Positions 15,501 through 47,491 of a stretch of 64,000 nucleotides of DNA are shown in pieces (within the stretch, counting starts at the first letter, position 1; every line of letters starts with the position of its first letter). Made by a program: the position numbers and the translations under genes. Under the pieces are notes generated by a model that made no database searches, was not told the origin of the DNA, and saw only the letters and a program-made list of their open reading frames with translations. The stretch spans positions 745,292 through 809,291 of the forward strand of contig CP129470.1 of the NCBI GenBank assembly GCA_030583685.1. The letters run 5' to 3'. This stretch comes from Candidatus Dojkabacteria bacterium (GTDB taxonomy: Bacteria; Patescibacteriota; Dojkabacteria; GCA-002793355).

Positions 15501-16224
15501 ATTTGAGATTGGGGGACACGAAGGGTACATCACAGCCAGCTTGTTTGAAGATGGAACCCCTGGCGAAATCTTTCTCACCATGAATAAAGAAGGAAGTACG
15601 CTCAGTGGCATTATGGATGCCTGGGCTATTTCGCTATCTTTGAATTTGCAGTACGGCGTTCCTTTGCAAGTGCTCATCAATAAATATTCACATGTACGCT
15701 TTGAGCCTTCAGGAATGACTAATAACAAGAACATCCCAATGGCAAAGTCGATTGTTGATTACCTGTCGCGATGGCTTGCGTTGAAGTTTCTTGATACTGA
15801 TACGGCAAAACGGTATCACACTGCAGAATTGGTTGACAGAGCGATGGGCAATGGCGATTTGAAAGCGGTTGATGTTATGAAGATATACAAACATCATGGG
15901 CCAGAAGAGGTGAAAGAACAGGTGAGTGTTTCTCATAGCAAAACAGTTACTGAAACAATTACGAAAACTCGTACTGTCGAAGATGAAACTGATACTGGAG
16001 AGTTAGCGCCCGTAGAAGCGAAAATTCAAGAAATTGAACAATCAGAAATTCCACCGGCACGAGTTGAAGTCGATTTGGAGATGCTCAGAAAAGAACAGGC
16101 GCAACAGGCAATGAAACAAAACAACGAAGATGCACCCTTATGTCCCGACTGCGGGTCAGTCATGATTAGAAACGGAGCGTGCTATAAGTGTTTGGACTGT
16201 GGTGCAACCACTGGGTGTTCTTAG
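12520..16224 (+). CDS. nrdJ: adenosylcobalamin-dependent ribonucleoside reductase (class II, long form)
   Basis: 1234 aa; N-terminal WSQVATDILAQKYLRKKGVP region, active-site NPCSEYMF...CNLASINL, C-terminal CPDCG...CYKCLDCG zinc ribbon typical of long monomeric NrdJ. Confidence 0.85.
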   Translation: MRHTIDAVLKEHLGENGLKVTRVFTKPEDNKLEQIVYEKRTSKIVDISGKAIFQQDNVEVPREWSQVATDILAQKYLRKKGVPVEIAERVDFSKDDSYEALATSLQQPTETTGEWSVRQVAHRLAGTWTWWGEQFNYFDTSEDAAAFYDELKYTLITQMTAPNSPQWFNTGLHWAYGINGPAQGHSYVDPATGELTRSSDAYSHPQPHACFIQEVEDDLVNPQGIFDLMTREARVFKYGSGTGTNFSNIREEGAGLSGGGSSSGVMSFLSVFDRAAGSVKSGGTTRRAAKMVILNVDHPDIEKFIEWKVREERKVVALVTGSHLAYSHLKAIMESAEKSGINPEANPELKKKISAAKQQHVPLNYIKRVLMLVENGVKSEDFKFATFDTDYRSEAYVTVDGQNSNNSVRVTDAYMQAVEADREWNLLSRIDGSIKRTVKAKEIWDKIAEAAWESADPGLQFDSTINDWHTCPKDGRINASNPCSEYMFLDETACNLASINLNKFYDSATRTFDIQTYRHVIRLWTMVLEISVLMSQSPSEKMAMRTFQYRTLGLGYANLGTVLMKMGLPYDSDEARGVTGALTAIMTGDSYAASAEMAKAVGTFERYEANKEDMLRVIRNHRRVAYSVTPSEYENLSTIPQGIDPSKTPPYLLNAARESWDKALALGEEFGYRNAQVTVIAPTGTIGLVMDCDTTGFEPDFALVKFKKLVGGGYFKIVNQSVEPALTSLGYDEYQVHDILKYVLGSASLTGAPHINRQSLKEKGFTDEKLDAIETQLSSAFSITFLFNQYVLGAEFIESILPGVDYAAPTFNLLQELGFTQDEIEAANEYICGSMTVEGAPHLKEEHYAVFDCANKCGSKGKRYIAPMGHVRMLAAGQPFISGSISKTVNLPEDASIQEIQDIYMSSWKLGLKCNALYRDGSKLSQPLSTSSDSDDVYSKLFTFDEEGEATDEAEVTPITVSRAVQQEATTVQAITQLLPRRKMPLERVSITHKFEIGGHEGYITASLFEDGTPGEIFLTMNKEGSTLSGIMDAWAISLSLNLQYGVPLQVLINKYSHVRFEPSGMTNNKNIPMAKSIVDYLSRWLALKFLDTDTAKRYHTAELVDRAMGNGDLKAVDVMKIYKHHGPEEVKEQVSVSHSKTVTETITKTRTVEDETDTGELAPVEAKIQEIEQSEIPPARVEVDLEMLRKEQAQQAMKQNNEDAPLCPDCGSVMIRNGACYKCLDCGATTGCS

Positions 16225-16235
16225 GGGGAATGGGA

Positions 16236-17792
16236 TTATTTCGTAGTTTCTAAAAGTTGCTCAACTTGTCGTTGAGTTAGAGGTGTCCAAGGTGAATTAG
16301 CGGGATTTAATGATGCTGCCGCCGGGCTGTCACCTTGTGTCCACCATCTTGCTTGATAAGGGATGCCCTCGAAAAGTACTCTGCTTCCAGTGTTGTATTG
16401 TTTACTTCCAGACCATTCAGGGTAAAATCCTGGTGGAAGAGTAATTGGCGGTAGTGGTTTCTCTCCCGGGAGAACTGGTCCAACAAGTTGCCAAGGTGTC
16501 TGCCAAGATTGCAGAACTGGATTGTCTGGCAAATCACCCTGAGTCCACCACTTTGCTTGGTAGACATTGCGTTTCCATACAATTTTTGTTCCTGCGAGAT
16601 ATACACCATCTTCGTTCCAAATAGGGTAAGGACTTGATTCTGGATCATCTTCTTCAATGATTGGCTCTGACTCTGCTTCTGCTATGGTTTCAGCTTGTGA
16701 ATTTGCTTCAATTTCTCCTGTAAATCCTTCACTGAGATAGACAATAAAATCGAGTTTATCTTGCGTGATACCACTACAAGAATCTGAAACCACTTTAACA
16801 TTGACATAATTCTCACCACATTGTATATCACGATTCGCAGACCACATTGACACTCTTTGGATGTTCTTTTCTCTAGCAAACGAATTGAGAATCTTGGCAT
16901 CTGAGACAGTAAAAACTTCATCTGAAATATCATTTTGACCAATCATTGGAGTAATTCCTATTTTAGTCCAAAGTGTGGATCGATTTAGGTAAATTCCTGC
17001 TTGGCTATAGAGAATTCCTAATTGTCTATGAGTTTCTATCATAGCGAGTTTCGATACTTCGGCAAGCGATTCTGTGTCTCCTTTACTCTCTCCGTAGTTC
17101 ATTGTCATAATATTGACACCTGCAAGATCAACTCCATTTTCAAGAAGTATTGAAACAGCATTGGTTCCTTCAGGAGTTAGACCTTGGGGAATAACAGGAA
17201 GGGTGACCCAAACTGCGAGAGGTTCTTTCTTTTTTCGTTTTTCTTTTTGAATCTCTGACAATACTTTTGCTCTTCTTACTCCTGCTTCCCAATCCTTCAA
17301 GCTGTCACCCTCAAGATCTAAATCAATTGTAGTGATTTCATAGGCGTCAATGACTGAAAGATAGGCATTTTTAAGTGAGTTTTCGTCGGTGCAATGAAGC
17401 GCAAGTTCATCGTTAAGTAAGCCTCCGAATGAAATAGCAATATCCCCTCCCTGTTGACGCAATCTTGCGATTCTTCGTTCTAGATCAAGTGCATGTGAAG
17501 CTCTCTCAATTGTATATGCATTTCCCCATGTTGGAGTACATGGATCAGTACTTGATGAAACAATGAAAGAAAGGATTACATTTTTTCCCTGGGTCGCACC
17601 AAGCTGTTCAAATGCATAACGCGGTTCTGCTGTTACATCAACATATGCAGCAAACCAAGGCGTATTTATCCCTAATTTTTTTGTTTGTTCCCAGTCAATA
17701 AAATGTGTATAACTAAAATAGCCAAGCCCAACTAGCAGCATTAGTGCAAACATGACCCTAAAAAAGGAGAGCTTTCTTCCAGATTGTGCCAT
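16236..17792 (-). CDS. membrane-anchored glycoside hydrolase family 18 (chitinase-like) protein with two C-terminal CBM5/12 chitin-binding modules
   Basis: N-terminal signal-anchor helix; GH18 hallmarks ISFGGLLN (SxGG) and IDLDLEGD (DxDxE catalytic motif); two repeats of AKWWTQGD/ARWWTQGD flanked by aromatic residues = CBM5/12 signature. Confidence 0.65.
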   Translation of the reverse strand: MAQSGRKLSFFRVMFALMLLVGLGYFSYTHFIDWEQTKKLGINTPWFAAYVDVTAEPRYAFEQLGATQGKNVILSFIVSSSTDPCTPTWGNAYTIERASHALDLERRIARLRQQGGDIAISFGGLLNDELALHCTDENSLKNAYLSVIDAYEITTIDLDLEGDSLKDWEAGVRRAKVLSEIQKEKRKKKEPLAVWVTLPVIPQGLTPEGTNAVSILLENGVDLAGVNIMTMNYGESKGDTESLAEVSKLAMIETHRQLGILYSQAGIYLNRSTLWTKIGITPMIGQNDISDEVFTVSDAKILNSFAREKNIQRVSMWSANRDIQCGENYVNVKVVSDSCSGITQDKLDFIVYLSEGFTGEIEANSQAETIAEAESEPIIEEDDPESSPYPIWNEDGVYLAGTKIVWKRNVYQAKWWTQGDLPDNPVLQSWQTPWQLVGPVLPGEKPLPPITLPPGFYPEWSGSKQYNTGSRVLFEGIPYQARWWTQGDSPAAASLNPANSPWTPLTQRQVEQLLETTK

Positions 17793-20083
17793 TACTTTGT
17801 CGACTTAATTAATTTTTTATCGTTAGTGACGAGTTCTTTAGTCTTGGAGTGTGGTACTTTCTGATCTGGATTTCCGTGGTAAAGCACTGACTGCCAATCA
17901 ATTTTCTGCTTTGTCTTGTTAACGCTTTCTTTTTGCTGGTTTTTTGTTTCGACATAAAGCCAACTTGTTAGTCCAATCCACATATCTTCTATAAAATTGA
18001 AGAAACCAATATATGCGAAAATAGCCCAACTCGCAAGTACCATATTGAAACCAGCATATGTAGCATTTCCCCAATTGCCTTTGAGATAATTGATATAGGT
18101 AATGTATGATGAAAAGAGTACAATTATCAGAGGAATAAGAAGATATTGTAATGATGCTGCAGTACGGTTTTTGACTTTTGGTGTCCTCGCAAATGGGATT
18201 TTCTTGCCTGTGACTGCCTGCTCCAAAGATTTTAATACACCAGCAAGATTTACCGGTAGTAAAATCAAATTAAATCCATAGATGTTTAATATATCAGAGT
18301 ATCTATAACCACAATATTTCAGATCAATTGCCATAGAAATGAAATATGGTACAGCAGTGAGTAATACTAATGTACTTAATAGTTGACCATCAAATGGATA
18401 TGCAAGCAAGAATACTAATCCGAAAGATGCCCATGCAATTGATGCCATGTAGTTAATTCGAAGAAGTACTTCAGACCATGGGACTATAAGATTTTTACTT
18501 TTCCTTTTGCGGATATAAGTAAATAACTTTGGTAGTATTAAGAGACCACCGTTTGCCCATCTCCTTCTTTGAATAATTAATGAACCAAAATCTGGCGGAG
18601 TAGCACTATAACTGAGTCGCTCAGGATAGTTGACCAGCTGCCAATTACTCAGAATCAAATCGACACTTGACTCCGTATCTTCAATAACGGTTCTATCCTG
18701 AACATACCGCTTAATTTCAAAACCTCCAATGTTCTCCTTTTCTACAATATCATCAAGTGCAATTTTTCTAATAACCGCATTTGCTCCGACCCAGAAAGTT
18801 GCACCAAAACGAGTCATTCCTTGGTGAATTATATGCTGTATATCTGTTGTTGCGCCTGATAGCCTCTCTATTCTTGAAAATGCACCTCTGTAAGATGAAT
18901 AAGGAGTTTGGGTTACAGCGACACGTTCGTTGCCCGATTGCTGGAGGAGATAAATGAGTCTGAGACAGTAGTCTTTAAGAAGGATAGAGTCTGCGTCTAA
19001 GGTCAAAAGGAATTCTGAATCTGGAAAACTAATACTGCCTTTTGTTTGAGGGTTCGACTGAATGAGTAACTTACCATCTGGAGAATCTTCTTCGACATAT
19101 GATCCACCCATCAACCCAATATAGGAGTTCAAGTTCATCGCTTTATTGAACTCTTTTGAAAGTGATGCGTATTTCTTTCTTTCAAAATAGGTCAGTTCAG
19201 CAGAGAAAATCCAAACGAGTCTTTGGTATAGCTCCTGAATTCGTTCTGGTGAAATTTGAGCTTTGTCTTGTACTGAAAGCTGTAATGCCTTGTGAATAAG
19301 ACGAAAATCTTGTGCCAAATCAAGAAGTACTTGTTCTACAAAAAATAAATCAACGTGGTCTTCAACCGACTCTTTGCTTGCAATCTCAGATATATAGTTC
19401 GCGGCCCATTTATAATGGTTTGCTAACGTTAGTGTACTCTCGTTTGAAACCTTTTTGTTTTGTTTGAAGGAATTGAATGCTCTTTGGAATCTTCTTTTCG
19501 GTATTGAAAGTACTTGTTGTATGTCGTTCGCAATTGCTCGCGTGGCATTAAGCTTTTCAATTGCAGATTCTTCGATTGGGTTTGGATTATCATCAATAAG
19601 TAACACAACTCTTTTCTTAGGAAATTCCTGCAATGCTGCCGACATCATAGTTTTTTTTACTACAGAGACTTCCTCATTATATGAGGGGATTAAAACTGTG
19701 ACATCCGAAGTGCTTTGGGAAAAGTGTTTCTCAAGTACTGCACGAGGGACTCTTGTGTGTTTGCTAAATCTTTCATAAGCACCTTGTCTTGCTATCAAAT
19801 ACATTAATGCCGAAAAAGTCAAAAATGTCATAACAGCAGTATAGCCAAAAGCTTCAACGGTAAAATTATAATTTTGTGGACCATCTACAAGTTGCTTTAA
19901 AAAGATCGAAAGAATGTAACTAATCCAAAAAAGTACGGTCAAAACAATTGCAACTCTATTAAATGCAAGTTGAAAAGTCGAAGGTTTTGCATGCAGAACT
20001 GGAAGTGGATCAACTTTTTTTTCACTGCCCAATTGTCGCTTTTTTGAGAAGCGTATTTTATCGCGAAGAGTTTGGAGATTCAT
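17792..20083 (-). CDS. processive family-2 glycosyltransferase (cellulose/chitin/PNAG-synthase-like), integral membrane
   Basis: 763 aa; N-terminal TM helices, LIDDNPNP (D,D), LTLDADS (DxD), VIEDTESSVDL (TED-like), QRRRWANGG (QxxRW) then about 6 C-terminal TM helices; stop overlaps start of downstream GH18 gene (ATGA). Confidence 0.7.
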   Translation of the reverse strand: MNLQTLRDKIRFSKKRQLGSEKKVDPLPVLHAKPSTFQLAFNRVAIVLTVLFWISYILSIFLKQLVDGPQNYNFTVEAFGYTAVMTFLTFSALMYLIARQGAYERFSKHTRVPRAVLEKHFSQSTSDVTVLIPSYNEEVSVVKKTMMSAALQEFPKKRVVLLIDDNPNPIEESAIEKLNATRAIANDIQQVLSIPKRRFQRAFNSFKQNKKVSNESTLTLANHYKWAANYISEIASKESVEDHVDLFFVEQVLLDLAQDFRLIHKALQLSVQDKAQISPERIQELYQRLVWIFSAELTYFERKKYASLSKEFNKAMNLNSYIGLMGGSYVEEDSPDGKLLIQSNPQTKGSISFPDSEFLLTLDADSILLKDYCLRLIYLLQQSGNERVAVTQTPYSSYRGAFSRIERLSGATTDIQHIIHQGMTRFGATFWVGANAVIRKIALDDIVEKENIGGFEIKRYVQDRTVIEDTESSVDLILSNWQLVNYPERLSYSATPPDFGSLIIQRRRWANGGLLILPKLFTYIRKRKSKNLIVPWSEVLLRINYMASIAWASFGLVFLLAYPFDGQLLSTLVLLTAVPYFISMAIDLKYCGYRYSDILNIYGFNLILLPVNLAGVLKSLEQAVTGKKIPFARTPKVKNRTAASLQYLLIPLIIVLFSSYITYINYLKGNWGNATYAGFNMVLASWAIFAYIGFFNFIEDMWIGLTSWLYVETKNQQKESVNKTKQKIDWQSVLYHGNPDQKVPHSKTKELVTNDKKLIKSTK

Positions 20084-26482: not shown

Positions 26483-27623
26483 ATGAAGAAACTCCACAAA
26501 CTATTACTAGGTAATTGGAATAAGCGCAGCTGTATTGGGTGGCGCATACTATTATTTTATATCCTTCCTCCGGCAGGGACAACGATTGAACAGAATGAGG
26601 CACAGGTTGCAACACCTTCCGTAATTGATGATCAAGTTTTAGAGAAAAGAGAACCAGAAGTTGTTGTTGAAGGTTTATCTGTCCCGTGGGAGGATTGCTT
26701 TTTTACCAACTGGCGAAATGTTGGTGACAGAGCGTGACGGTCGGATTGTGAAAATCGCAAACGATAGAAAAGTGTATCAAATTGAAGGTGTTACTCGAAC
26801 AAGTGAAGGTGGCCTTCTTGGTCTGGTACTTCATCCAAACTTTATGCAGAACAGTTATGTCTACATTTATAAAACAACGACTGAAACAAATCGGCTCAAT
26901 AATATTGTTGAGCGATATCGTCTCAATAGTGAGAAGCTTGAAGAGAGGAAAAGAAATATTCACCGGAATTCCTGGTGCTGCAATCCATGACGGGGGACGG
27001 ATGGTATTTGGTCCCGATGGAATGTTGTATATTGCAACTGGTGATGCAAATAGAAGTGAATCGGCACAGGTACGAGAACACCTGCACGGAAAGATATTGC
27101 GAGTAACAGATGAAGGGATGATTCCATCTGATAATCCATTTTCCGGTAGTCCTGTATTTTCACTCGGACATCGAAATCCACAGGGACTTTCATGGGATAC
27201 AGAAGGAAGATTGTGGTCCTCCGAACATGGAAGATCTGGCGTGGCGTCTGGCTATGATGAAATCAATCTGATTGAGGCGGAAAAAATTATGGATGGCCCA
27301 CCATTCAAGGTCCGCAGGCAAAAGTGGGATTGGTTTCTCCCGTTGCACAGTCTGGAGCTTCAACTACGTGGGCACCGGGGGGATTAGCATATTTTGAAGG
27401 GAATCTGTATTTTACTGGATTGCGGGGTGAAGCGTTATATCGCTATACGATCGAAACAAAGGAGCTGACGCAGTTCTATCACAAAAGGTACGGCAGGCTT
27501 CGCGCTGTCACGATGGGGGAGGATGGGTTTTTGTACTTTGGAACATCAAATAAGGATGGTCGAGGAAGTCCAAAATCGGGAGACGATAAAATACTAAGAA
27601 TTGAGCCAAAGAATTTGCGTTAG
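26483..27623 (+). pseudogene. PQQ-dependent soluble sugar (glucose/sorbosone) dehydrogenase, disrupted by three frameshifts
   Basis: Four consecutive ORFs in frames 2,3,1,3 (26483..26737, 26661..26990, 26782..27387, 27324..27623) together spell one sGDH beta-propeller protein (GLSVPWE / FLPTGEMLVTERDGRIV / GLLGLVLHPNF / GRMVFGPDGMLYIATGD / GHRNPQGLSWD / DEINLIEAEKI / GGLAYFEGNLYF). Confidence 0.6.
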
Positions 27624-27960: not shown

Positions 27961-28568
27961 CTACTGCGATATTATGGCGGTAACTGTTTCAGCAAGTTCT
28001 TCTATCGAGTTGACGACTGCTCGCGGATTGCCTTGCTCCAACATCGCCTTGTCATGGTATCCCCATGTAACGGCGATTGCCTCAATCCCAACTTTTTCTG
28101 CCTCACGAATATCACCGAGAGTGTCTGTAATAAAATACATCTCTCGATTATGGTGTAGTTTTTGGACTGATTGTAATTTAATCACTTTTGATTTCTCAAC
28201 ATCTACCCCAAGGATGTTACCAAAATAGTGTCGGAGGTTATATTTCTCCAAAAAGCGTGTATCGGTGGGGTAATTGTCGATGAAACAATGGTTGGCTTTT
28301 CGGGGAAAAAATGCAGGACAGATTCAATTTTATCAACTGGAAGTAAGGAGAGAATTTGTTTGCTATAGGTGGAGAAAAATTTTTTAATTTCATTTGATCG
28401 TGTATTCGCGTTTTTTATTTGCTTAGCATCATAAATGTTTCCAGTAAACATATTCTTGTATTCAGGTATCGTTATCTCAGGGTGATTCTGTTTACTAATC
28501 TCGTATGCCATGGATAAGGTGTTAACGACAACACCGTCAAAATCGAAGATGAAGTAAGGAGAAGTCAT
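27961..28568 (-). pseudogene. HAD-superfamily hydrolase split by a frameshift
   Basis: 28203..28568 encodes N-terminal half with FDFDGVVVNT (motif I); 27961..28251 encodes C-terminal half with ITDTLGDIREAEKVGIEAIAV (motifs III/IV); halves overlap out of frame at 28203..28251. Confidence 0.5.
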
Positions 28569-29343: not shown

Positions 29344-29381
29344 TTGCCACGCAAGTAAAGTTATAGTATAGTAACCGTAAT

Positions 29382-30968
29382 ATGAGGTTACACAAGAAAA
29401 CTGTCTGGTTTGCTATTGCCATCATTGCGGTACTTTCTCTCATAGGAGGCGGTGCATTTTTCTCCATAAAAATGATGAATGTGTGGGATGATGAGAGTAC
29501 TTGGAGCGTAGATTCTTCAGTTGCATTGCCAGTTGTTGCAGACGGAACGTTTAAGATGACCAGCGAAAAAAACGATTCTGGTGGTACCACAATAACGGTA
29601 CCGTTTTGTGTCCTGTACGATGCAGCAGAAGTTGAGAATGGTGCCACAGAATACTACTGTGCTGCGATACCATATTCAACATTGCAATTAATAGACTATT
29701 TTCCGACAAGTTTTCAGTTTAAAAAGGACATCGTTTTTACTTACAACCCCGAGCGCGATCCGTTACCTGAAGAGTTTATTGGCCGATTAGGCATTACCTC
29801 TGAAACGATCAAGTCGATAGGATCAGAGCCATTGCCGGTGTCAATGGAGGCAGAGGTCTCGCACACGAAGCCAAAGCTTACCCCTGTTTCACTGGTTACT
29901 CATTATTTAATGGTTATGCGAGGTGAAAAGGAAGTGTATGAAGCAACTGCAATGGAATCGTGGAAAATTTCAAAGGTGAAACTTGCAGCAGATTATTCAG
30001 AAGCAGAAAAAAAAGAAGTTGTTGCGGAATGGAGAAAACAAGCATGGCAAGATATCAATAAACTTCTCAAAACTGAAGAGTATTTAAATGCCCCAAACAA
30101 TAAAGAATTGGTAACAAAGCTAGGACCAGCCATGGCATGGCGAAGTGTGTATTGTCCGACGGCAGAGGTCGCCGAACAGTGTGAAGTATCCTATCCGCAA
30201 AATGCGTCTACAAACATTATGTATTATGTGTACGCAGCAAGTCGTATCGATGAGCGTGTGGCAAAACAAATGACTTTGGCGTTACGAGAGAAGGTTATTC
30301 CGTTTGTGTTTGATAATAATCCTGACATGGCTACCTATTACGGTAACTGTGATCCAGAAGGAGAGTGTGCGTACTATCACAATATGCAGGTGTATGATTA
30401 CCCTGTTTGTCCGATTAACCATTTGGCAAGCGCACGGAAAAGTACCTATATAGAGGAGTTGTATGAAGAGCTTCGATTTGTGTTAATTGATGACGAATTC
30501 ATTGAGGAGCCTCTGAATTATGCTGAGATTGAGCGTGAGATTAACGCGTTAAAACAGGATTTCTTGAAGAGCGGGATATATCGAGCCTTTAACAGTTACG
30601 AAGTAGGAGAGGCGATTTCAAAAATTGACAAGCTTTGTCTTCATATGGTTTACAATCAGACACTTCCTGACCAGCGACTTGTTGCTATGATGAAGGAGAT
30701 TTACTATCTCTATGTGTTCGGACAGGTATTTACTGATGAACAAGATTTTAACATTACACCAGATAAGGTCGACGAAAAGTTGTTCCAACTAGTGCTCAAT
30801 GCGGGTGTATTGAATCCGTATGCGTATTCGATTGTTCCACAACCTTACACGAGTTATCACAGAATTTTAACCGGCGTGTATAAAGCTGACGCAGACTACT
30901 TGCTCGATGGCTATTGGGGCTCGATCAATATGACACTTGTACTACTTTATCTAACATCTTCCTATTAA
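29382..30968 (+). CDS. hypothetical membrane-anchored/secreted protein
   Basis: 528 aa with N-terminal signal-anchor (WFAIAIIAVLSLIGGGAFF), otherwise hydrophilic; no motif recognised. Confidence 0.45.
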   Translation: MRLHKKTVWFAIAIIAVLSLIGGGAFFSIKMMNVWDDESTWSVDSSVALPVVADGTFKMTSEKNDSGGTTITVPFCVLYDAAEVENGATEYYCAAIPYSTLQLIDYFPTSFQFKKDIVFTYNPERDPLPEEFIGRLGITSETIKSIGSEPLPVSMEAEVSHTKPKLTPVSLVTHYLMVMRGEKEVYEATAMESWKISKVKLAADYSEAEKKEVVAEWRKQAWQDINKLLKTEEYLNAPNNKELVTKLGPAMAWRSVYCPTAEVAEQCEVSYPQNASTNIMYYVYAASRIDERVAKQMTLALREKVIPFVFDNNPDMATYYGNCDPEGECAYYHNMQVYDYPVCPINHLASARKSTYIEELYEELRFVLIDDEFIEEPLNYAEIEREINALKQDFLKSGIYRAFNSYEVGEAISKIDKLCLHMVYNQTLPDQRLVAMMKEIYYLYVFGQVFTDEQDFNITPDKVDEKLFQLVLNAGVLNPYAYSIVPQPYTSYHRILTGVYKADADYLLDGYWGSINMTLVLLYLTSSY

Positions 30969-30975
30969 GCGTGCT

Positions 30976-33900
30976 ATGACGATACGATTTCACATAAAAC
31001 ACCTCCTGTTAGCAATGGTAGGAATGGCTGCCCTAGTATTTATTGTTGGTACTGCCACAGGGTCTTCCGACTATAAAGTGCAAGCGTGGTATTGTTCGGG
31101 AGGGTGTGATATCAAGCAACCTTGTGAATGTAAAAAACGCGATAAGAATGGTAAGTGTATTTCGTATCCACAATGCGGTGTAACCTGTGGTCCAAAACTG
31201 CAAGGTGGAGAAACGTGGTGTGGCGGTGGGAAAACTGCTGCCTGTACCTGTGTCGGCGGTGACTGTCGAGAATCAGGTGGGCAGTCATGTTCAAATCTTG
31301 GTGCGGTATGTCCTGCCTGTTCTTGTGATCCCGTTAGTTGTCCCCCAGGATCTCCCCCTACAAAGTTTATGACCCGTCCAATCTCCAATGGAAATGGTGT
31401 TCGATGTAATGGATGTGATGGACAAACCTATGCGTGTGATCCAACGCACGCAAATACCCCGCCTGTGTGCTCAATTCTTCCGGGTAATATTGTTATTGAT
31501 AGGCAAGATGATCCAAAGCAATTTGCGCTTACTGTTACGGATAACGATTGGGGTGATGCAGTCGAAATAACGGGAATTAAGATTTTGGATGTTCAGGGGC
31601 AGCTCAATTCCTGTGCTCAGATAACTGGAACTTCCGGCCAAAGTCTTCTTGGTGCCGTAGTCAGACCAGGAAGATCGGACGCCGACAAGGCAAGGATTTC
31701 TGAAACAACGAATTTTCTGGTTGATGCTCGTGAATCTCATGGTGTATATACTCGAAATGCAAATGGTCGTTCAGTCTGTCAAGGAAGTTTGAACATTGAG
31801 ATTAGAGATTTGGATTCTGATGGTGCAGGGCCTGACAAGTCTGATGTCGCTGTCTGTAAAGTTAATGTTACGGTCACGAACCATGCACCGACTGTATCAG
31901 GCATTCGCTTAGAAGATAGAGACACGATGACGGCGATGCGTACTTCAGGAAATTTGATTAATGGGACAGATACCATCGTAAATGTTGGTTCGCGATTAAC
32001 AACTGCAAATAAGTTCAGAGCGTATTACTGTAAAGAAACGCTTGCCAATATTATGCCGATAACGTGTCCTGTTGGTGCAGAAGAGTATCTTTCTGGGGTA
32101 AAAAACCCGTTATTCTTTGAATTCACGGTAACTGATAGAAATGGTGCAAATGATATCATGCAAGCAGGTGTATGGTTACAGCTTCGAGAAACCGGAAAAA
32201 ACAGTAATGTAGCAAATTTTCCGCTTGTTGGTGCACAGCGGTTCAGTTTCCAAGCACTTTATTCTGAGAAAGAAACCTTGAAGATTGGTGCTTTTGATCA
32301 TTTTACCTCGCGAGGGTGTTTGACTGAAGCATGTGGGCCATTAAATATGACAACAAGTCCGAAAACAGTATTTACCGGATTAGGAAGAATAACCAGTTTA
32401 GGAAATCCTGCAACTGTCGGTTCTAAGAACGGCAATTTGTATATGTCTCAGGCGGCGGATAGAAAAAAGTCTGCAACTACCAATGAATGGCATCGTGTGG
32501 GTTATCCTGATTGTCTCGTTCGTGGTGGCTGTAATAATACTAATGTTCCTGCAGTTGCAAAACTTGCTCCAACAAATGACACCTCGCTTCCTGATAATTA
32601 TGCATGGGCAATCGGTGCTGATGAAAATAATATGCTTTGTTATCCAAAAGCAGGGCACGCACCAACAGTGGTTGCTGCTAGCAGTTCGAATATTTGTCCT
32701 GCAAACTGTGCCGCATGTATTAAACGAGAAGGCATGGAGGCAAAAGGTACTGACTCGATTACCTATCGATTTGGCCTATATTTTAATGATGGCGAGTCAT
32801 TAACTGGACAAGGGATGCCCTCAGGCGATTACTCTCTCTTAATAAGTGCTCTGGATAAAGTTGGTGCCCCGTTGTATCAAGTCGAAGGGAAAGGTCCTGA
32901 AGGATGGACTTTGTTTGATAAGTTTGGTGAGGTATGTCAGGGTGCATCATGTGTATCAGGTAATGGCTTTAGAATCAGGTACGATACTATTGCACCTCAA
33001 GTAACTGTAACAAATTGGTCTTCTAATGCAGATAATGAGACTGTTCGAGCAGTTGTGACAATTGTTGATAATACTGGTGGTTCCGGTGTTCGTGGGGTAA
33101 CAAATCGCTTCCTAGCGTTCCAAAATATGGTTGATGGAGAGCCTTCTGGCACCTGGGAATGGACGAAGAAAGAAGCAAGTGACGAAGATTTTGACGGAAA
33201 GAATGATCATCAACGATTTACTGGCTCATCAATGACGCTCATTGGTCGAGGCATGTCTTCTGGTGATGAGATTGTAGCTGGGCTTTGTGCCTACGATGCA
33301 GCAGGAAACATGGGATGTGGAAAGAACGCTGAGAATTATGTATTTCTTGCCAACTGGATGAAGACATCATTTGGAAATATCTATAGTGGTACTGGTTCAA
33401 GTGCACCATTTAGTATGTCCTTGCCGTCAAATCAAGTGTTTAACGGTAATGAAACAAGGGACGAAACCAGAAAAGAGAGTAAGCAGTATTCACAAGTTAC
33501 AATATATTCACCGTATTCTGAACAGGAGTTTACTGTTGGGACAGGGCTATTACTAAGTAGTTCTGGTGCAAGCAATTCTGGATTGCTTGGTGGAAAGTCT
33601 TCAGGCTCGACTCAAACGCCACTTGGTTTTCTCAATAATTATCGACAAGGGTCAGGGACAACAGTATATAATTTCTTCTCGTTAACCTCCTTCAGCCAAG
33701 GAAATGAATTTGAGCGACTGCAATCGATTGCAAAAGTTAATTGTCAATTGTTAAATGCAGGCAATCCTGGAACATGTACTGAATCGTCGAGTATTTCTGA
33801 GTTGGGAAGTAATAATTACACGGTATTAACGGTCAACAGTGCGTCAATTTCAAGTGATTTGGTATGTAAGAAAGTCAATGTCATCTTTATTACCGGCGAT

Positions 33901-34347
33901 GTAAGAATAACGGGTAATCTTACAAAGGAAAATGAGCAATCGGGGTGTCTCTTTGTCGTTGGGAACGGAGGTTCTCTCTCAGTTCAAGATAGGCCATCTG
34001 GTGATCGTCAGAGAACTGAAGTAAGTGGAGGTAAAGGTGCCCCAATTGTCGACCAATTCCATGCAGGTATTGTAGGAACAAATGGGTCTACTGTTTCATT
34101 TAAAAAGCCAGAGACACCTGCTAGAACGGGTAATGATCGATTAGAAATTCACGGCTGGGTGTACACAGTCGGAAGACCCGCCAATTTTTTGAGAGATTTG
34201 GCGGCTGTCGATAACCGTCGTTTCCCTGCAGAGTGGATTATTTACGACGCAACATTACTTGATGTTTTGAGACCGTTGGTTGGATTTGAAAAAACTGCTG
34301 ATCTTCTCTGTGGTACATCTGGCCACGTTCTCTGCCGATCGCAATAA
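30976..34347 (+). CDS. large secreted surface protein with Cys-rich N-terminal domain
   Basis: 1123 aa; signal peptide; about 24 Cys in residues 40-170 (CSGGCDIKQPCECK...CNGCDGQTYACDP), then long Gly/Ser/Thr/Asn-rich beta-type region. Confidence 0.5.
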   Translation: MTIRFHIKHLLLAMVGMAALVFIVGTATGSSDYKVQAWYCSGGCDIKQPCECKKRDKNGKCISYPQCGVTCGPKLQGGETWCGGGKTAACTCVGGDCRESGGQSCSNLGAVCPACSCDPVSCPPGSPPTKFMTRPISNGNGVRCNGCDGQTYACDPTHANTPPVCSILPGNIVIDRQDDPKQFALTVTDNDWGDAVEITGIKILDVQGQLNSCAQITGTSGQSLLGAVVRPGRSDADKARISETTNFLVDARESHGVYTRNANGRSVCQGSLNIEIRDLDSDGAGPDKSDVAVCKVNVTVTNHAPTVSGIRLEDRDTMTAMRTSGNLINGTDTIVNVGSRLTTANKFRAYYCKETLANIMPITCPVGAEEYLSGVKNPLFFEFTVTDRNGANDIMQAGVWLQLRETGKNSNVANFPLVGAQRFSFQALYSEKETLKIGAFDHFTSRGCLTEACGPLNMTTSPKTVFTGLGRITSLGNPATVGSKNGNLYMSQAADRKKSATTNEWHRVGYPDCLVRGGCNNTNVPAVAKLAPTNDTSLPDNYAWAIGADENNMLCYPKAGHAPTVVAASSSNICPANCAACIKREGMEAKGTDSITYRFGLYFNDGESLTGQGMPSGDYSLLISALDKVGAPLYQVEGKGPEGWTLFDKFGEVCQGASCVSGNGFRIRYDTIAPQVTVTNWSSNADNETVRAVVTIVDNTGGSGVRGVTNRFLAFQNMVDGEPSGTWEWTKKEASDEDFDGKNDHQRFTGSSMTLIGRGMSSGDEIVAGLCAYDAAGNMGCGKNAENYVFLANWMKTSFGNIYSGTGSSAPFSMSLPSNQVFNGNETRDETRKESKQYSQVTIYSPYSEQEFTVGTGLLLSSSGASNSGLLGGKSSGSTQTPLGFLNNYRQGSGTTVYNFFSLTSFSQGNEFERLQSIAKVNCQLLNAGNPGTCTESSSISELGSNNYTVLTVNSASISSDLVCKKVNVIFITGDVRITGNLTKENEQSGCLFVVGNGGSLSVQDRPSGDRQRTEVSGGKGAPIVDQFHAGIVGTNGSTVSFKKPETPARTGNDRLEIHGWVYTVGRPANFLRDLAAVDNRRFPAEWIIYDATLLDVLRPLVGFEKTADLLCGTSGHVLCRSQ

Positions 34348-34392
34348 AGATTCGGATTGACCTTGTGTTTGTATAGTAAATATCTGTGAATT

Positions 34393-34401
34393 TGTTATAA
34401 T
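34393..34401 (+). promoter_or_regulatory. extended -10 promoter element (TGtTATAAT)
   Basis: TGnTATAAT ending 6 nt before the GTG at 34407. Confidence 0.3.
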
Positions 34402-34406
34402 CGCAT

Positions 34407-35570
34407 GTGAACGAAGAATCTCAACAACAACCAGTGCAACCTGAAATCCCAGAAATTCCTGTTGTTCCAGATGGTGAACAAGGAGGGAAACCAGCTGATA
34501 CCGGCAGGTATTCACGCTTCATTACAGGTTTTATTCTCTTGGTAGTTCTTTTGTTGATTATTGGAGGAGTTCTCGCAATTACTGCACCCGCTACATTCTC
34601 GGCAATTATTAATGCTTTTTGGCTTTTTATGTTCTGTTTAGTTTTGCTCTTTTTGATTTTGGGAATACTAGTCATGGTAGGGTTGAAAAACCAAGTACGC
34701 CAGATTCTCGATATTTTTATTGAAGGGACCCTAACAATTGTTGATTTGATGAATTTTTTGAAGCTTGCGTTACAGTTTATACGAGATATTATCAAACAAG
34801 CAATCTATTTTTTAATTCCCTTCTTTGCATACTTACTCGGAGGCTTACTATATTTTGCACTTATTTATGCATATAAATGGGTAGGCAAGTCGTACGATGT
34901 GACCGTGTTTACCATAGTTCTTACTGCCATGTTAATCGTAGCAACAGGTTTCTTAAACAAAAAATCAAAGCACGAAGATCTCGTAGAGAAAACATGGAAA
35001 CAGAAGGTGCAAGTGAGATTCAAAGATATTTTTGGCGATGCTGTTGAAGTCGTACTCTTTATTTTCTTTCTGACCATGGACAGTCAGAATCTGTTCTTCT
35101 TGCCAGATGCACTCAATGTTGAGCTTCATGCAGCTGTTGGTGATTATAATTTCATGACTCGCGGATGGACACTCGATCAGCAGCTATTTACGACACTTAA
35201 TTTGGTGATGGCTGCTGTTGGAATCGAAGTTCTTCGGTTTGGTATGAGAATTGTTGCTGCTGGCTTTGCTTTTTATAAAGAAGTCAATTCGTATGTTGGT
35301 GAAGCAAACCAGCAAATGTCTGGAGCTGCACAAATTAAATGGGCACTCCGCCAAAGCTTTCAAGTACATAAAGATGATGTTATCCGATTTATAACGTATA
35401 CAACCTTTATTGTTGCTGTATTCTTGGCTTTCCCCAGATTGAAATTACTCGCAATGGCGGTTGCGAGTTTAACAGCATTTGTCATGGATTTATGGATGCG
35501 CGATCGACTCGTCATAAAGAAGGGAAATGATCTCTTTTCTAAACTCGTTTCAGGCATTTTTAAGGTCTAA
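34407..35570 (+). CDS. hypothetical polytopic membrane protein with Pro/Glu-rich N-terminus
   Basis: 387 aa, about 8 hydrophobic helices; GTG start as given by ORF track (true start uncertain). Confidence 0.45.
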   Translation: MNEESQQQPVQPEIPEIPVVPDGEQGGKPADTGRYSRFITGFILLVVLLLIIGGVLAITAPATFSAIINAFWLFMFCLVLLFLILGILVMVGLKNQVRQILDIFIEGTLTIVDLMNFLKLALQFIRDIIKQAIYFLIPFFAYLLGGLLYFALIYAYKWVGKSYDVTVFTIVLTAMLIVATGFLNKKSKHEDLVEKTWKQKVQVRFKDIFGDAVEVVLFIFFLTMDSQNLFFLPDALNVELHAAVGDYNFMTRGWTLDQQLFTTLNLVMAAVGIEVLRFGMRIVAAGFAFYKEVNSYVGEANQQMSGAAQIKWALRQSFQVHKDDVIRFITYTTFIVAVFLAFPRLKLLAMAVASLTAFVMDLWMRDRLVIKKGNDLFSKLVSGIFKV

Positions 35571-35887
35571 TGGCTCACGAGGACTTTCGGAAATTAAATA
35601 TGGCGTTTCGTTGCGAGAATTGCGGAAAACATGTTGCTCCAGCAAGAAAGACGTCGAGAAATCACTGTCCGTTTTGCTTATATTCTAAACATGTTGACAT
35701 AATTCCTGGTGATCGAAAAGAGGTATGCCAAGGGTTGATGGAAGTAATCGATTATGAACTGCATCACGGGGAGGTGCGATTGATTCATAAATGTCAAAAG
35801 TGTGGTAAAGTGGGTGTTAATAAATCCTCAGACGATGACCATATTGAACAATTGTTACAAGCTTCAGCTGGGAGCAGTCAAGGGTAG
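35570..35887 (+). CDS. RNHCP domain protein (zinc-ribbon-like)
   Basis: CENCGKH...SRNHCPFCLYSKH...CQKCGK : literal RNHCP motif with flanking CxxC pairs. Confidence 0.55.
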   Translation: MAHEDFRKLNMAFRCENCGKHVAPARKTSRNHCPFCLYSKHVDIIPGDRKEVCQGLMEVIDYELHHGEVRLIHKCQKCGKVGVNKSSDDDHIEQLLQASAGSSQG

Positions 35888-38692: not shown

Positions 38693-39937
38693 TTAACGAG
38701 TCGTTGGTCTCGCGTCATAATCGATTGCGGGGACATAGAGTGCAATATCCCCTCGTGCACCATTTTCAAAGACGACCTCACCCGAAGCTACATAAATTGG
38801 CTGTAAGTAGGGTTGAATTCTGTTTGGTTCATAATACGCAAGTTCTAGATTGTAAAGATTGATTTCTTTAAGCGGTGCCGAGGTGCGAGGTTGTAGGGGG
38901 TCCCCTCCTTTTTCAATCGCATAGACGATAGTTCCTTCACCTTGAGAGATCTTGCTAATAGCATCTGCTGGACGAATAATTGGATACGTACCACAAGGGA
39001 CTTCTTCAACTTTCCAGTTGTTGTAGTGAAGTTGTTGGATTCCATCTGAAGGGTGACCTCCCTGACTACGAATGTAAATTTGTACATTTGCGGTCTCAGG
39101 GGTTCGAGAAACCCGACGTGATTCGAATTTGATGTAAGCAGGATTATCTTCTCCTTTTTTCTTCATCAAATCGATAAAGCCGACAAAATCAATGCCACGA
39201 GCTGCATCAAAGGTTGGCGATAACACCGCACGATCATAGACAAGTGAGTAGTTTACTTTTTGAAAATCAACGCGAATTAGTTGGGCAACATCAAGGGATT
39301 TTGCTAATACCGGTTGACCGTTTACCATAGTTACTGGATACGCAAAAGATTTTCCTTTTGCAAAGTCGTTGGTATACAAGCCAAGTGCGCGGAGATAATT
39401 ACCCGCGTATTCTGGGGCACGAAATACTGTTGCAGGTAACTGTAAATTTGGGACGGCGGGTAATACCGCATCTTCACGAATATACGAGAAATGGAGCGTG
39501 TCAGTATTTACTGTTAAAGTAGAACGTTTTGCTGGATCCTTCCATTGATAGATGGTTGAACCGGCAGCATGCTGCACATCGGTCCGAATATTGAAGTCAC
39601 GCGCTAAGGAATATGCCAAATCTCTCGTTTCAAATGTTTCCCCTTTGACATCGATCTTGTACACATAAGTAATTAAAGGGACACGGTCATTGGGGAGTGA
39701 GGGGCCAAGTGCAACAACCTGAATAGAGGCATTGCCAAATTCGGTACTTTCTTGAGCTTCGATCTCAACTTTTGGAAGTTCCCCACATCGGAAATCTGCT
39801 CGAAAAACTTGATCTGGTGTTCTGGTGATACTAATAACGTACAAATAGGCATAGTACCCGACAATGATGAGAACAACGAATACTCCTACAAACTTCGATG
39901 CAGCTTTCGTCCAAAATACTGTTTCAGTTAATGTCAT
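38693..39937 (-). CDS. hypothetical membrane-anchored extracellular protein
   Basis: 414 aa, single N-terminal TM helix then hydrophilic beta-rich domain. Confidence 0.4.
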   Translation of the reverse strand: MTLTETVFWTKAASKFVGVFVVLIIVGYYAYLYVISITRTPDQVFRADFRCGELPKVEIEAQESTEFGNASIQVVALGPSLPNDRVPLITYVYKIDVKGETFETRDLAYSLARDFNIRTDVQHAAGSTIYQWKDPAKRSTLTVNTDTLHFSYIREDAVLPAVPNLQLPATVFRAPEYAGNYLRALGLYTNDFAKGKSFAYPVTMVNGQPVLAKSLDVAQLIRVDFQKVNYSLVYDRAVLSPTFDAARGIDFVGFIDLMKKKGEDNPAYIKFESRRVSRTPETANVQIYIRSQGGHPSDGIQQLHYNNWKVEEVPCGTYPIIRPADAISKISQGEGTIVYAIEKGGDPLQPRTSAPLKEINLYNLELAYYEPNRIQPYLQPIYVASGEVVFENGARGDIALYVPAIDYDARPTTR

Positions 39938-46438: not shown

Positions 46439-47491
46439 ATGAATAAAGAAAAAATTTCAGTTGTCTTCCCTACAACGGAAGAATTACTCAAGTCAGGTGC
46501 GCAATTCGGGCACTCAACGCAACGCTGGCATCCAGCATTCGCGCCGTATATCTATAGAGAAGCTAAAGGAATTCACATCATTGATGTTCGTCAGACAGTA
46601 CCAGCACTCGAAAATGCAGTCGACTTTCTTGGTGCTGCCGTCCAAAAAGAAGCACGAGTGTTGATTGTTGGAACGAAAAAACAGGCCGCAGGAATCGTGA
46701 AAGAAATGGGCGAGAAATTCGGAATCTTCTATGTGAATGACAAATGGCCCTCAGGTCTCTTGACGAACTTCAAGACGGTTTCACAATCTATTCAAAAGTT
46801 ACAACGATTACAGGAGTTACATATTAAAAAAAGATATGTTCTTCCAAAAAAAGAATTACTGTCAATGCAACGAGAAATCGAGAAGCTAAAAGCAAGGTTT
46901 AATGGCGTTATGTTTATGGATAGACTACCGCAAGTGATAATAGTCATTGATACGAAGTATGAAAAGATTGCGGTAAAGGAAGCTCGCGCAATTGGTATCC
47001 CAGTAGTCGGCATAATTGACTCAAATTGTGATCCAAGGCTTATTGACTACCCTGTTCCGTCAAATGATGATGCAATTAAAGCCATTCGATTGATCCTTGG
47101 CGTGTTTAGTGAAGTTTTAAGTAAATATAGCTCAAAACGCTTGGTTCCTATGCGAGAACAATTCGCAAAGCGCTTAGCCGAACTCAATCGATCTATTGAA
47201 GAAGAGCATCGAATTAAGGTAGCAAGCGAGTTGCCTGTTGAACAAAAGACTGAAACAACCGTTACTCCTCGAGAAGAATCAAAATCGGGCCGTACAGTTC
47301 GAGTGACCTCCTTTAGAGCAATTTCTGAATTGAAACTTCCAGAAACAGTTCTCGAAAAATTAACGCAAGCAGGGATTACTTCTATTGAACAAATCAAAGA
47401 GAAATCCTTCGAAGAGTTGAAGAGTTTGAAAGGAATTGGTGCAAAGACGGCAGAAAAGATAATCTCAGTGGTACAGAAATATGGCAAATAA
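46439..47491 (+). CDS. rpsB: 30S ribosomal protein S2 with C-terminal helix-hairpin-helix extension
   Basis: N-terminal 250 aa = S2 (FGHSTQRWHPAFAPYIY...); extra about 90 aa ending LKSLKGIGAKTAEKIISVV (HhH motif). Confidence 0.85.
   Translation: MNKEKISVVFPTTEELLKSGAQFGHSTQRWHPAFAPYIYREAKGIHIIDVRQTVPALENAVDFLGAAVQKEARVLIVGTKKQAAGIVKEMGEKFGIFYVNDKWPSGLLTNFKTVSQSIQKLQRLQELHIKKRYVLPKKELLSMQREIEKLKARFNGVMFMDRLPQVIIVIDTKYEKIAVKEARAIGIPVVGIIDSNCDPRLIDYPVPSNDDAIKAIRLILGVFSEVLSKYSSKRLVPMREQFAKRLAELNRSIEEEHRIKVASELPVEQKTETTVTPREESKSGRTVRVTSFRAISELKLPETVLEKLTQAGITSIEQIKEKSFEELKSLKGIGAKTAEKIISVVQKYGK

Follow-up and report, generated by a model that had tools for sequence, protein, structure and literature searches.

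Three genes upstream of recA

We analysed a 64-kb window (the whole stretch of 64,000 nucleotides, contig CP129470.1; all positions are those of the window) from a metagenome-assembled genome (MAG) of Candidatus Dojkabacteria. Three consecutive co-oriented open reading frames (ORFs), here called A, B and C, are present at 29382-35570, where a sequence-only reading of the DNA had reported them. Gene A (29382-30968, plus strand, ATG start, 528 aa) is predicted to encode a bitopic protein and is the upstream partner in a two-gene cassette. Gene B (30976-34347, plus strand, ATG start, 1123 aa) encodes a predicted secreted, Cys-rich protein and gene C (34407-35570, plus strand, GTG start, 387 aa) a predicted polytopic membrane protein. 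The topology of all three products was judged from hydropathy and motif conservation. The gene A product is 100% identical to NCBI QY312_03870 (Ca. Dojkabacteria MAG). A CsoR-like repressor and a thioredoxin are encoded upstream of the block, and RNHCP, RecA and RecJ downstream. The three genes had been taken as one block; this did not hold, the unit being the A-B pair, while C belongs to a single site and is conserved separately.

None of the three proteins had been assignable to a family by eye, and the searches agree with this, since no match was detected in Pfam or NCBIfam (E <= 1), PHROGs (E <= 1) or PADLOC (E <= 0.1), and no intracellular enzyme domain was found in A, B or C by the domain searches. 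For A and for C the PDB gave no match either. When the PDB was searched with sequence profiles of the A and B families, of gene C and of the B C-terminal domain, all matches were spurious and at chance level (eS26, VPS15 and EutS), and a per-member Pfam scan of the A family gave scattered chance-level matches only. A phage origin was rejected (tblastn of B against 50,697 phage records gave no match, nor did PHROGs), and so was an anti-phage defence system (no PADLOC match).

The B protein has a single N-terminal hydrophobic segment (residues 10-28), followed by V-Q-A and then W-Y-C. The predicted signal peptide, assigned by hydropathy and conservation, covers residues 1-37 (30976-31086, plus strand; h-region 10-25) and ends in V-Q-A before the W. 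This AXA-type signal-peptidase site is kept in close homologues as V-x-A before W/Y-x-C, and an AXA-like motif stands just ahead of the first Cys in many B relatives, so that the signal peptide proposed earlier for the 1123-aa protein is upheld. A bacterial lipoprotein was rejected for both products of the pair (no lipobox; the first Cys comes after residue 39 in B and after residue 75 in A). LPXTG sortase anchoring finds no support in their sequences: A and B have no [LIVN]Px[TSA]G motif, and B ends in ...CGTSGHVLCRSQ without a hydrophobic segment.

B contains 43 Cys in total, 29 of them invariant over its whole length in eight aligned sequences. Residues 40-165 hold 20 Cys, with CxC and CxxC spacings at CEC50, CTC90, CPAC112 and CNGC144; given that Cys makes up 0.73% of the residues in the window's 46 other long ORFs, the probability of at least 20 Cys in 130 aa is about 1.6e-20. 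The extreme Cys content of the N-terminus and its CxC/CxxC patterns, both claimed from the sequence, are thus confirmed, with a count of 20 in place of about 24. The first part of mature B (residues 38-100, 31087-31275, plus strand, 11 Cys) is its least conserved stretch, and the Cys positions within residues 40-100 vary even between close homologues. Among relatives with an N-terminal hydrophobic segment, 30 of 41 show six or more Cys within the following 90 aa, and on these alignments a Cys-rich head of variable sequence, directly after the signal peptide, is therefore recurrent across the B family. A link between the disulfides of B and the thioredoxin encoded upstream was considered and rejected (the thioredoxin has no export signal, and the adjacency is conserved synteny).

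The head is followed by a conserved Cys-rich module (residues 101-165, 31276-31470, plus strand; CSCxPVSCPPGxPPTKFMTRP...CDG.TYACDP...CSILPG in the alignment of eight), with invariant C115, C117, C122, C144, C147, C154 and C165. The AlphaFold2 (AF2) model is not confident over it. The suggested likeness to EGF or disulfide-knot modules found no support: no EGF or other Pfam family matched the module at E <= 1, and the PDB profile search gave only eS26 (E 0.26).

Two beta-sandwich regions were modelled by AF2 in the middle of B. Region 1 (residues ~166-315, 31471-31920, plus strand) is all-beta with a per-residue confidence (pLDDT) of ~70-88 and carries the motifs TVTDNDWGD and DLDSDGAGPD, which may be Ca-binding-like. 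Region 2 (residues ~550-785, 32623-33330, plus strand; all-beta, pLDDT ~55-80) ends in YDxAGNMxC, of which D774, A776, G777, N778 and C781 are invariant in eight sequences, and the D.ACN motif was found again in distant B relatives. Neither Pfam nor NCBIfam matched an Ig-like, fn3, cadherin-like or Big domain in B. Foldseek with the full-length model detected only generic Ig/fn3/MG arrays (E down to 8e-7, template modelling (TM) score normalised by the query <=0.13), namely integrin legs, complement C3, alpha-2-macroglobulin, CfaB and Saf pilins, SdrD and the Deinococcus HPI S-layer protein. Residues ~787-905 are Gly/Ser/Thr-rich and were not modelled. The composition of B (G 11.2, S 8.6, T 8.3 and N 6.8%) agrees with the long Gly/Ser/Thr/Asn-rich regions described earlier, the richest stretch being residues 801-1000. 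Calling this 1123-aa protein giant was generous.

The family is defined by the C-terminal module of B, residues 794-1123 (33355-34344, plus strand, by hidden Markov model (HMM) alignment), which starts with W(L/M)KTSFG(D/N)(I/V)YS. Its family-wide conservation was taken from an iterated HMM over 79 aligned segments. W794, T797, G800, P817, C964, F971, C991, F993, D1026 and D1054 are conserved across 56-68 aligned relatives, as are L1056, G1060, R1073, L1075, N1080, P1084, E1086, Y1090, D1091 and G1103; since the conserved positions run from W794 to G1103, the signature module is placed at about 794-1123. Most distant B relatives align to the C-terminal part only. Within the module, residues 905-1123 (33688-34344, plus strand) form a confidently modelled domain (AF2 on 32 sequences, pLDDT 89.3, predicted TM score 0.85), in which a long alpha-helix is packed against a beta-rich body and which ends in a CGTSxHxLC loop. 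The model has no significant structural neighbour in the PDB (best E 0.74) or BFVD (best E 0.25), the domain has no match among PDB sequence profiles, and Pfam searches of 32 C-terminal domains gave chance-level matches only (DUF7305 at E 0.038, Cthe_2159 and PATR, each in 1 of 32). The module is probably a new protein domain.

The same module could be read as catalytic. B would then be a secreted depolymerase or hydrolase acting on host envelope polymers, with the beta-sandwich or carbohydrate-binding parts holding the substrate and A as an accessory or maturation factor. Residues D1026, D1054, R1073, N1080, E1086 and D1091 are invariant family-wide, distant relatives carry CBM60 (a xylan-binding module), and the essential envelope proteins of Saccharibacteria include polysaccharide-binding or -degrading domains (PMC10633639). 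Beta-solenoid domains are the sole, weak structural neighbours of the C-terminal model (IBP-1/DUF3494, PL6 lyases, P22 and CBA120 tailspikes, fusolisin, bactofilin), most of them enzymes or tailspikes, and IBP-1 likewise has a long helix and a beta-rich body. However, all these matches are non-significant (E >= 0.74, TM <= 0.29), the strands of the model are 10-13 residues long, unlike typical beta-solenoid rungs, and no profile of Pfam, NCBIfam or the PDB pointed to an enzyme family. Anchoring or sorting domains, too, show a conserved C-terminus next to a variable N-terminus. We consider an enzyme distinctly unlikely. A right-handed beta-helix, tailspike or IBP-1 fold as such was rejected for the domain, no significant superposition being found (E 0.7-10, probabilities <=0.08, TM <=0.29).

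The A protein has one N-terminal hydrophobic segment (residues 11-29, 29412-29468, plus strand; Kyte-Doolittle mean 2.33) behind the basic MRLHKK, in agreement with the signal-anchored protein proposed earlier; since no AXA-type site follows the segment, it is probably a signal anchor. A juxtamembrane W-x5-W motif (W35...W41, 29484-29504, plus strand) is invariant in 13 aligned A proteins of 450-545 aa, which share the N-terminal anchor and a hydrophobic ...LYLT... C-terminal end. No variation was seen at W35, W41, C76, C93, P97, H174 and P307, and C343 and C419 are near-invariant.

A promoter-like site, TTGCCA-17-TATAGT (29344-29372, plus strand), ends 9 nt before the start codon of gene A; the promoter scan as a whole was not above chance (18 sites found, 17.4 expected). 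A -10-like TATAGT, TATACT or GTATAC lies 5-10 nt before the start codon of most A genes (75 nt upstream inspected, L001-L011; L numbers denote fetched loci), which suggests that the cassette transcripts may have a very short leader or none.

The A-B cassette and its relatives

We detected an A-like gene directly upstream of the B-like gene in all 14 cassettes with readable upstream DNA, in a census that combined tblastn of the window proteins against the fetched loci, ORF maps and an A-family HMM. The pairing holds down to B relatives of 26-31% identity. The distance from the A stop to the B start is -35 to +7 nt, so A and B are probably translationally coupled. At least three genomic sites were found: (i) thioredoxin-[A-B]-C-RNHCP-RecA-RecJ, as in the window; (ii) GT2 ... 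sortase-[A-B]-UvrD-like helicase (L001, L010 and L011); and (iii) Sua5-[A-B] (L003 and L009). A sortase gene is thus directly upstream of the paralogous cassette at site (ii), and none was found among the scanned neighbours in the window.

Genomes hold two or three cassettes, with three copies in single MAGs and tandem duplicates in L004 and L011. The genome of the window has at least one further cassette, since P0011 (QY312_01145) and the A gene of L001 are identical, and this A gene stands ahead of P0002, a B paralogue with 60% identity. In the tandem pairs of L004 and L011 the B copies are 61% identical and the A copies 26%; most A-A pairs are 22-28% identical, and the divergence of A is about double that of B. 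Between the identity matrices of A and B there is a modest correlation (r 0.37, reached in 4 of 2000 permutations), as expected if the cassettes duplicate and diverge as units. As judged from these comparisons, A-B is a mobile, multi-copy, self-contained two-gene cassette, restricted to a few lineages of Patescibacteria (the candidate phyla radiation, CPR).

Along B, identity per 50-aa block is 20-35% at residues 1-100 and 40-67% elsewhere, the best conserved blocks being 351-400 and 1051-1123 (62-67%). Conservation over the full length, together with cassettes that lie among housekeeping genes and are kept at syntenic sites across genera, could suggest that A and B are structural envelope components (S-layer-like or a wall scaffold) with no specific ligand, their copies being redundant or condition-specific; the Deinococcus HPI protein among the Foldseek matches is of this type. 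The family is nevertheless very rare and confined to few lineages, unlike a core envelope component, a high Cys content is atypical of S-layer proteins, and the paralogues are strongly diverged, with A near saturation, suggesting diversification rather than redundancy. A purely structural role therefore appears to us rather improbable, on a par with the enzyme.

Two further readings were rejected. For diversification by a diversity-generating retroelement, no repeat of at least 30 nt involving 29382-35570 was found in the window and no reverse transcriptase among the scanned neighbours, a scan that covered part of the window ORFs. For a polymorphic toxin or contact-dependent inhibition locus, the pattern is reversed: the N-terminus of B is variable and its C-terminus conserved, and the partner is encoded upstream, has 450-545 aa and is membrane-anchored.

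Further genes accompany some cassettes. At site (ii), one or two ~300-aa proteins are encoded ahead of the sortase gene (L001 5680-8398, L010 6464-8125 and L011 2192-2890), with a signal peptide, a Cys-containing domain, a Thr/Pro-rich linker and an end of ...HTP(T/E)DTG-FADD, a transmembrane segment and a KR tail, which is likely a non-canonical sortase sorting signal. A conserved protein of ~300-320 aa with 8-9 Cys and no Pfam match, whose C-terminus reads ...KL(D/T)AF(A/T)(T/N)AIK(K/N)HEGF..., is encoded downstream of B at site (iii) (L003 13672-14634 and L009 14269-15240) and beside a separate cassette in L006 (6607-7512, minus strand).

The B family is rare. A word-indexed search of 5.8 billion clusters found 7 B homologues (1120-1208 aa, 45-99% identical, without Pfam domains), and a profile search of all 1.84 billion cluster representatives found 70 B-like proteins at E <= 0.001, 33 of them at E <= 1e-30. 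Ten B loci were detected in 185,579 species genomes, all in MAGs labelled Patescibacteria, Dojkabacteria or Saccharibacteria, and four in 241 million JGI metagenome records with the full-length alignment as query. Every named source record of the family is patescibacterial, and the view of B as a lineage-specific surface protein is sustained to the extent that B and its relatives are restricted to Patescibacteria wherever the source is named. Of 37 distant relatives, five have fn3 and two CBM60, and Big_7, SpaA_4 and DUF2341 occur in single proteins; two relatives are named at source 'carbohydrate-binding domain-containing protein [Patescibacteria group bacterium]' and 'fibro-slime domain-containing protein'.

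The gene context of the distant relatives differs. Two small membrane-anchored proteins, unrelated to A, precede each distant B-like gene in L014, L015 and L017, and L018 has three B-like copies in tandem with no partner. We rejected A as a fusion of the two small membrane proteins, because hhalign aligned the transmembrane helix only (probabilities 2% and 17%), and the 305-306-aa proteins upstream in L016 and L014 as PilX-like pseudopilins, for which Pfam gave no support.

Type IV pilus genes adjoin two of these relatives: in L015 a PilM_2 gene and a PilN-like gene follow the B-like gene on the same strand, and in L017 the B-like gene is convergent with PilB (T2SSE), PilC (T2SSF) and N_methyl pilin genes. 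B-type proteins could accordingly be pilus accessory or tip proteins analogous to PilY1, with A or the small membrane proteins as the link. The size of B (~1100 aa) is, we assume, similar to that of PilY1; B is likewise secreted, with a conserved C-terminus and a variable N-terminus as in PilY1/PilC. Type IV pili mediate host attachment in Saccharibacteria (PMC10633639; PMC11623550), which would fit such a role. Against it, no pilus gene (minor pilins included) lies beside any of the 14 A-B cassettes, and the neighbours in the window are housekeeping genes. Neither a prepilin (N_methyl) motif nor a PilX or PilY1 Pfam match was found in A, B or the small partners, A is not a pilin, and B has neither a beta-propeller nor a vWA domain by Pfam. 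Two adjacencies in about eight distinct contexts might be chance in small genomes. We regard a pilus function of the pair as very unlikely. In L014, on a patescibacterial contig, a distant B-like gene pair has two T4SS_pilin (PF18895) genes at a distance of ~7 kb (18419-19139).

Gene C and the rest of the window

The 387-aa product of gene C has about eight hydrophobic segments behind a Pro/Glu/Gln-rich N-terminal tail (residues 1-33), which fits the polytopic protein with a Pro/Glu-rich tail described earlier. The TGtTATAAT element noted before this gene is present as an extended -10 element, TGTTATAAT (34393-34401, plus strand), 5 nt before the GTG. The arrangement AAATTTGnTATAAT-N5-GTG precedes gene C in four diverged genomes (the window, L002, L004 and L008), at 34393-34409 in the window, ~6285-6305 in L002, ~11280-11297 in L004 and ~13285-13303 in L008, so that element and spacing are conserved in three genomes besides the window. 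The conserved element, spacing and GTG point to a separate transcription start for gene C. Its mRNA is possibly leaderless or near-leaderless, starting with GUG; GUG is an unusual start for leaderless translation.

In L002, L004 and L008 the identity of C is 75-78%, against 43-48% for B and 25-42% for A. Gene C was found only at cassette site (i). The last base of C is the first base of the RNHCP zinc-ribbon gene (35570-35887, plus strand; PF12647, E 5.8e-27), which lies outside the cassette, and the gene order of the C-RNHCP region of the window is seen again in L002. Because of the single site, the higher identity, the own element and the overlap, we consider C-RNHCP a separate conserved transcription unit upstream of recA and recJ.

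A, B and C could still be one functional block, with C as a dedicated exporter or anchor for B. The three genes are co-oriented and adjacent, the B-C gap is 59 nt, and L002, L004 and L008 share the order A-B-C. Yet downstream of other cassettes, the second one of this genome (L001) included, there is a UvrD-like helicase gene or some other gene in place of C, and L004 has two cassettes ahead of a single C. The unequal identities of C and B, the TGnTATAAT-N5-GTG of its own and the overlap with the RNHCP gene count against it as well. A shared function of the three genes thus seems to us most improbable.

The rest of the window holds housekeeping genes, among them those for class II ribonucleotide reductase, a GT2 glycosyltransferase, a CBM_5_12 protein, DprA, topoisomerase I, ribosomal protein S2, EF-Ts, RRF, RseP and ProRS, and five tRNA genes. 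Several genes of the window deserve record. A PQQ-type glucose/sorbosone dehydrogenase (GSDH, PF07995; 26483-27623, plus strand) is broken into three overlapping ORFs in different frames (26661-26990, 26782-27387 and 27324-27623) and is either a frameshifted pseudogene or an assembly error. Beside it, a HAD-family hydrolase (27961-28568, minus strand) is split into two overlapping ORFs (N-part 28203-28568, C-part 27961-28251), an apparent second frameshift. A 414-aa protein with an N-terminal membrane anchor (38693-39937, minus strand) was matched by neither Pfam nor NCBIfam; its gene also comes after that for RecJ in L002, L004 and L008, with 67-72% conservation.

The class II ribonucleotide reductase (12520-16224, plus strand) has 1234 aa; its barrel match comes in two stretches (residues 209-759), which may reflect an insertion as judged from the sequence, and a weak TACO1/YebC_N match lies inside it (residues 307-369). 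Ribosomal protein S2 (46439-47491, plus strand) has a C-terminal helix-hairpin-helix extension (HHH_5 / RNA_pol_A_CTD-like, residues 293-346). At 16236-20083 (minus strand), a 518-aa protein with a C-terminal CBM_5_12 (chitin/cellulose-binding type) adjoins the 763-aa GT2 glycosyltransferase, and the two may be a pair for the synthesis and binding of a surface polysaccharide.

A candidate surface pair of Patescibacteria

We suggest, at about even confidence, that A and B are a co-transcribed, export-type, adhesin-like surface pair in which A is the dedicated partner of B, gene C being separate. Export-type N-termini, dense conserved Cys, the beta-sandwich content and the adhesin or carbohydrate-binding domains of relatives place the large domain of A and mature B outside the cytoplasm, and this placement, together with the domains of the relatives, suggests a role in surface interaction. 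Such a role has been proposed for large surface proteins of other Patescibacteria and has genetic support for some of them: the epibiotic growth of Saccharibacteria depends on large surface proteins that carry adhesion domains (PMC10633639), and in Absconditicoccaceae large surface proteins have been put forward as host-recognition factors (PMC13059738). B would be exported via Sec, lose its signal peptide and fold outside the cell as a disulfide-rich protein, made of the variable Cys-rich head, the conserved Cys-rich module, several beta-sandwich domains and a C-terminal module of ~330 aa unique to the family. A would be inserted by its N-terminal helix, with ~490 residues outside the cell, and would work with B at the surface, either docking, retaining or assembling it or being displayed beside it as a subunit. 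Since B has no anchor of its own and is tightly coupled to an anchored partner, retention or assembly of B via A would be the simplest mechanism. The pair may serve adhesion to a host cell or substrate, with the two or three diverged copies as alternative specificities. Gene C would have its own promoter and share a transcript with the RNHCP gene, ahead of recA and recJ. The analysis establishes the gene structure, the export-type N-termini, the lack of known domains, the patterns of conservation, and the conservation, copy number and restriction to Patescibacteria of the cassette; from these we infer cleavage of the signal peptide, disulfides, physical contact of A with B, retention at the surface and adhesion.

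Several observations weigh against an adhesin-like pair. B has no recognisable anchor (LPXTG, lipobox or C-terminal transmembrane segment) and might simply be released, and the rapid divergence of A is not expected of a docking partner for a conserved C-terminal module. Distant proteins with the C-terminal module occur without A. The full-length AF2 model of B (8 sequences) is poor, with a mean pLDDT of 50, and because the query-normalised TM scores do not exceed 0.13, 'Ig-like adhesin' would be a statement about the fold class of the models only. The invariant D1026, D1054, R1073, N1080 and D1091 would equally fit a catalytic or metal site. The attachment role itself is proposed by analogy.

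A bolder version would make A-B a two-component surface apparatus of an undescribed kind, specific to Patescibacteria, with B as a disulfide-stabilised fibre, the hyper-divergent A ectodomain setting host specificity, the cassettes as a host-range repertoire and the C-terminal module as the mark of a CPR-wide display system. The C-terminal module would adopt a new fold and hold B at the monoderm surface in a new way, independently of sortase and lipid, the two or three cassettes would set or switch the host range, and the module could work with other partners such as the pair of small membrane proteins, whose genes in some cases adjoin those of type IV pili. We think such an apparatus unlikely.

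Returning to the adhesin-like pair, the closest known counterparts are large multi-domain surface adhesins of Patescibacteria, such as SEML1_0890, SEML1_0891 and SEML1_0315 of Southlakia epibionticum, essential envelope proteins with fn3, VCBS or dockerin domains (PMC10633639), and the surface proteins of more than 1500 aa in Absconditicoccaceae (PMC13059738). With these the pair has in common the kind of organism, a signal peptide or membrane anchor, an extracellular architecture rich in beta-sandwiches (as modelled for B), adjacent genes and a proposed role at the host interface. Distant B relatives share domain kinds (fn3, CBM, Big) with patescibacterial adhesins; B differs from these in having no adhesion domain detected by HMM, in its Cys-rich head and C-terminal module, which are not described there, and in its obligatory upstream partner gene.

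LPXTG/MSCRAMM/SpaA-type proteins are secreted and built of tandem Ig-like domains, as B may be, and Foldseek matched B to SdrD B-domains and pilin fusions. A sortase and sortase-substrate-like proteins stand at one cassette site (L001, L010 and L011), and one distant B relative has SpaA_4. A and B differ from LPXTG proteins in having neither an LPXTG-like motif nor a C-terminal hydrophobic segment with a basic tail, and the sortase adjacency is limited to that one syntenic site, with no sortase by the cassette of the window.

The adhesion complexes of Mycoplasma are also formed by the products of adjacent genes, P1 with P40/P90 in M. pneumoniae and P140 with P110 in M. genitalium. They would resemble A-B in that neighbouring genes, expressed together, give two large extracytoplasmic proteins in a host-dependent bacterium of reduced genome, and in having multiple diverged copies. 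Unlike these complexes, B has no membrane anchor, and the extra A-B copies are complete cassettes rather than partial recombination donors. No sequence or fold similarity was found, although no test was aimed at this comparison, and no recombination-type repeats were found in the window.

Taken together, B represents a known kind of protein, the secreted and probably adhesive surface protein with several domains, as found in an episymbiotic lineage. What appears to be new is the A-B family itself, with its Cys-rich head, signature C-terminal module, fast-evolving partner and multi-copy cassette; it is absent from annotation libraries, and we found no description of it in the literature. The unit defined here can be recognised by its parts, a secreted, Cys-rich protein that carries the signature C-terminal module and a membrane partner that evolves fast, and by its several copies per genome. 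Should the cassette have no part in attachment, it only adds to the hypothetical surface protein families of single lineages. If it does mediate attachment, A and B would be candidate host-specificity determinants for the uncultured Dojkabacteria and their relatives, and the cassette would provide a marker for comparative genomics and a domain for structural study.

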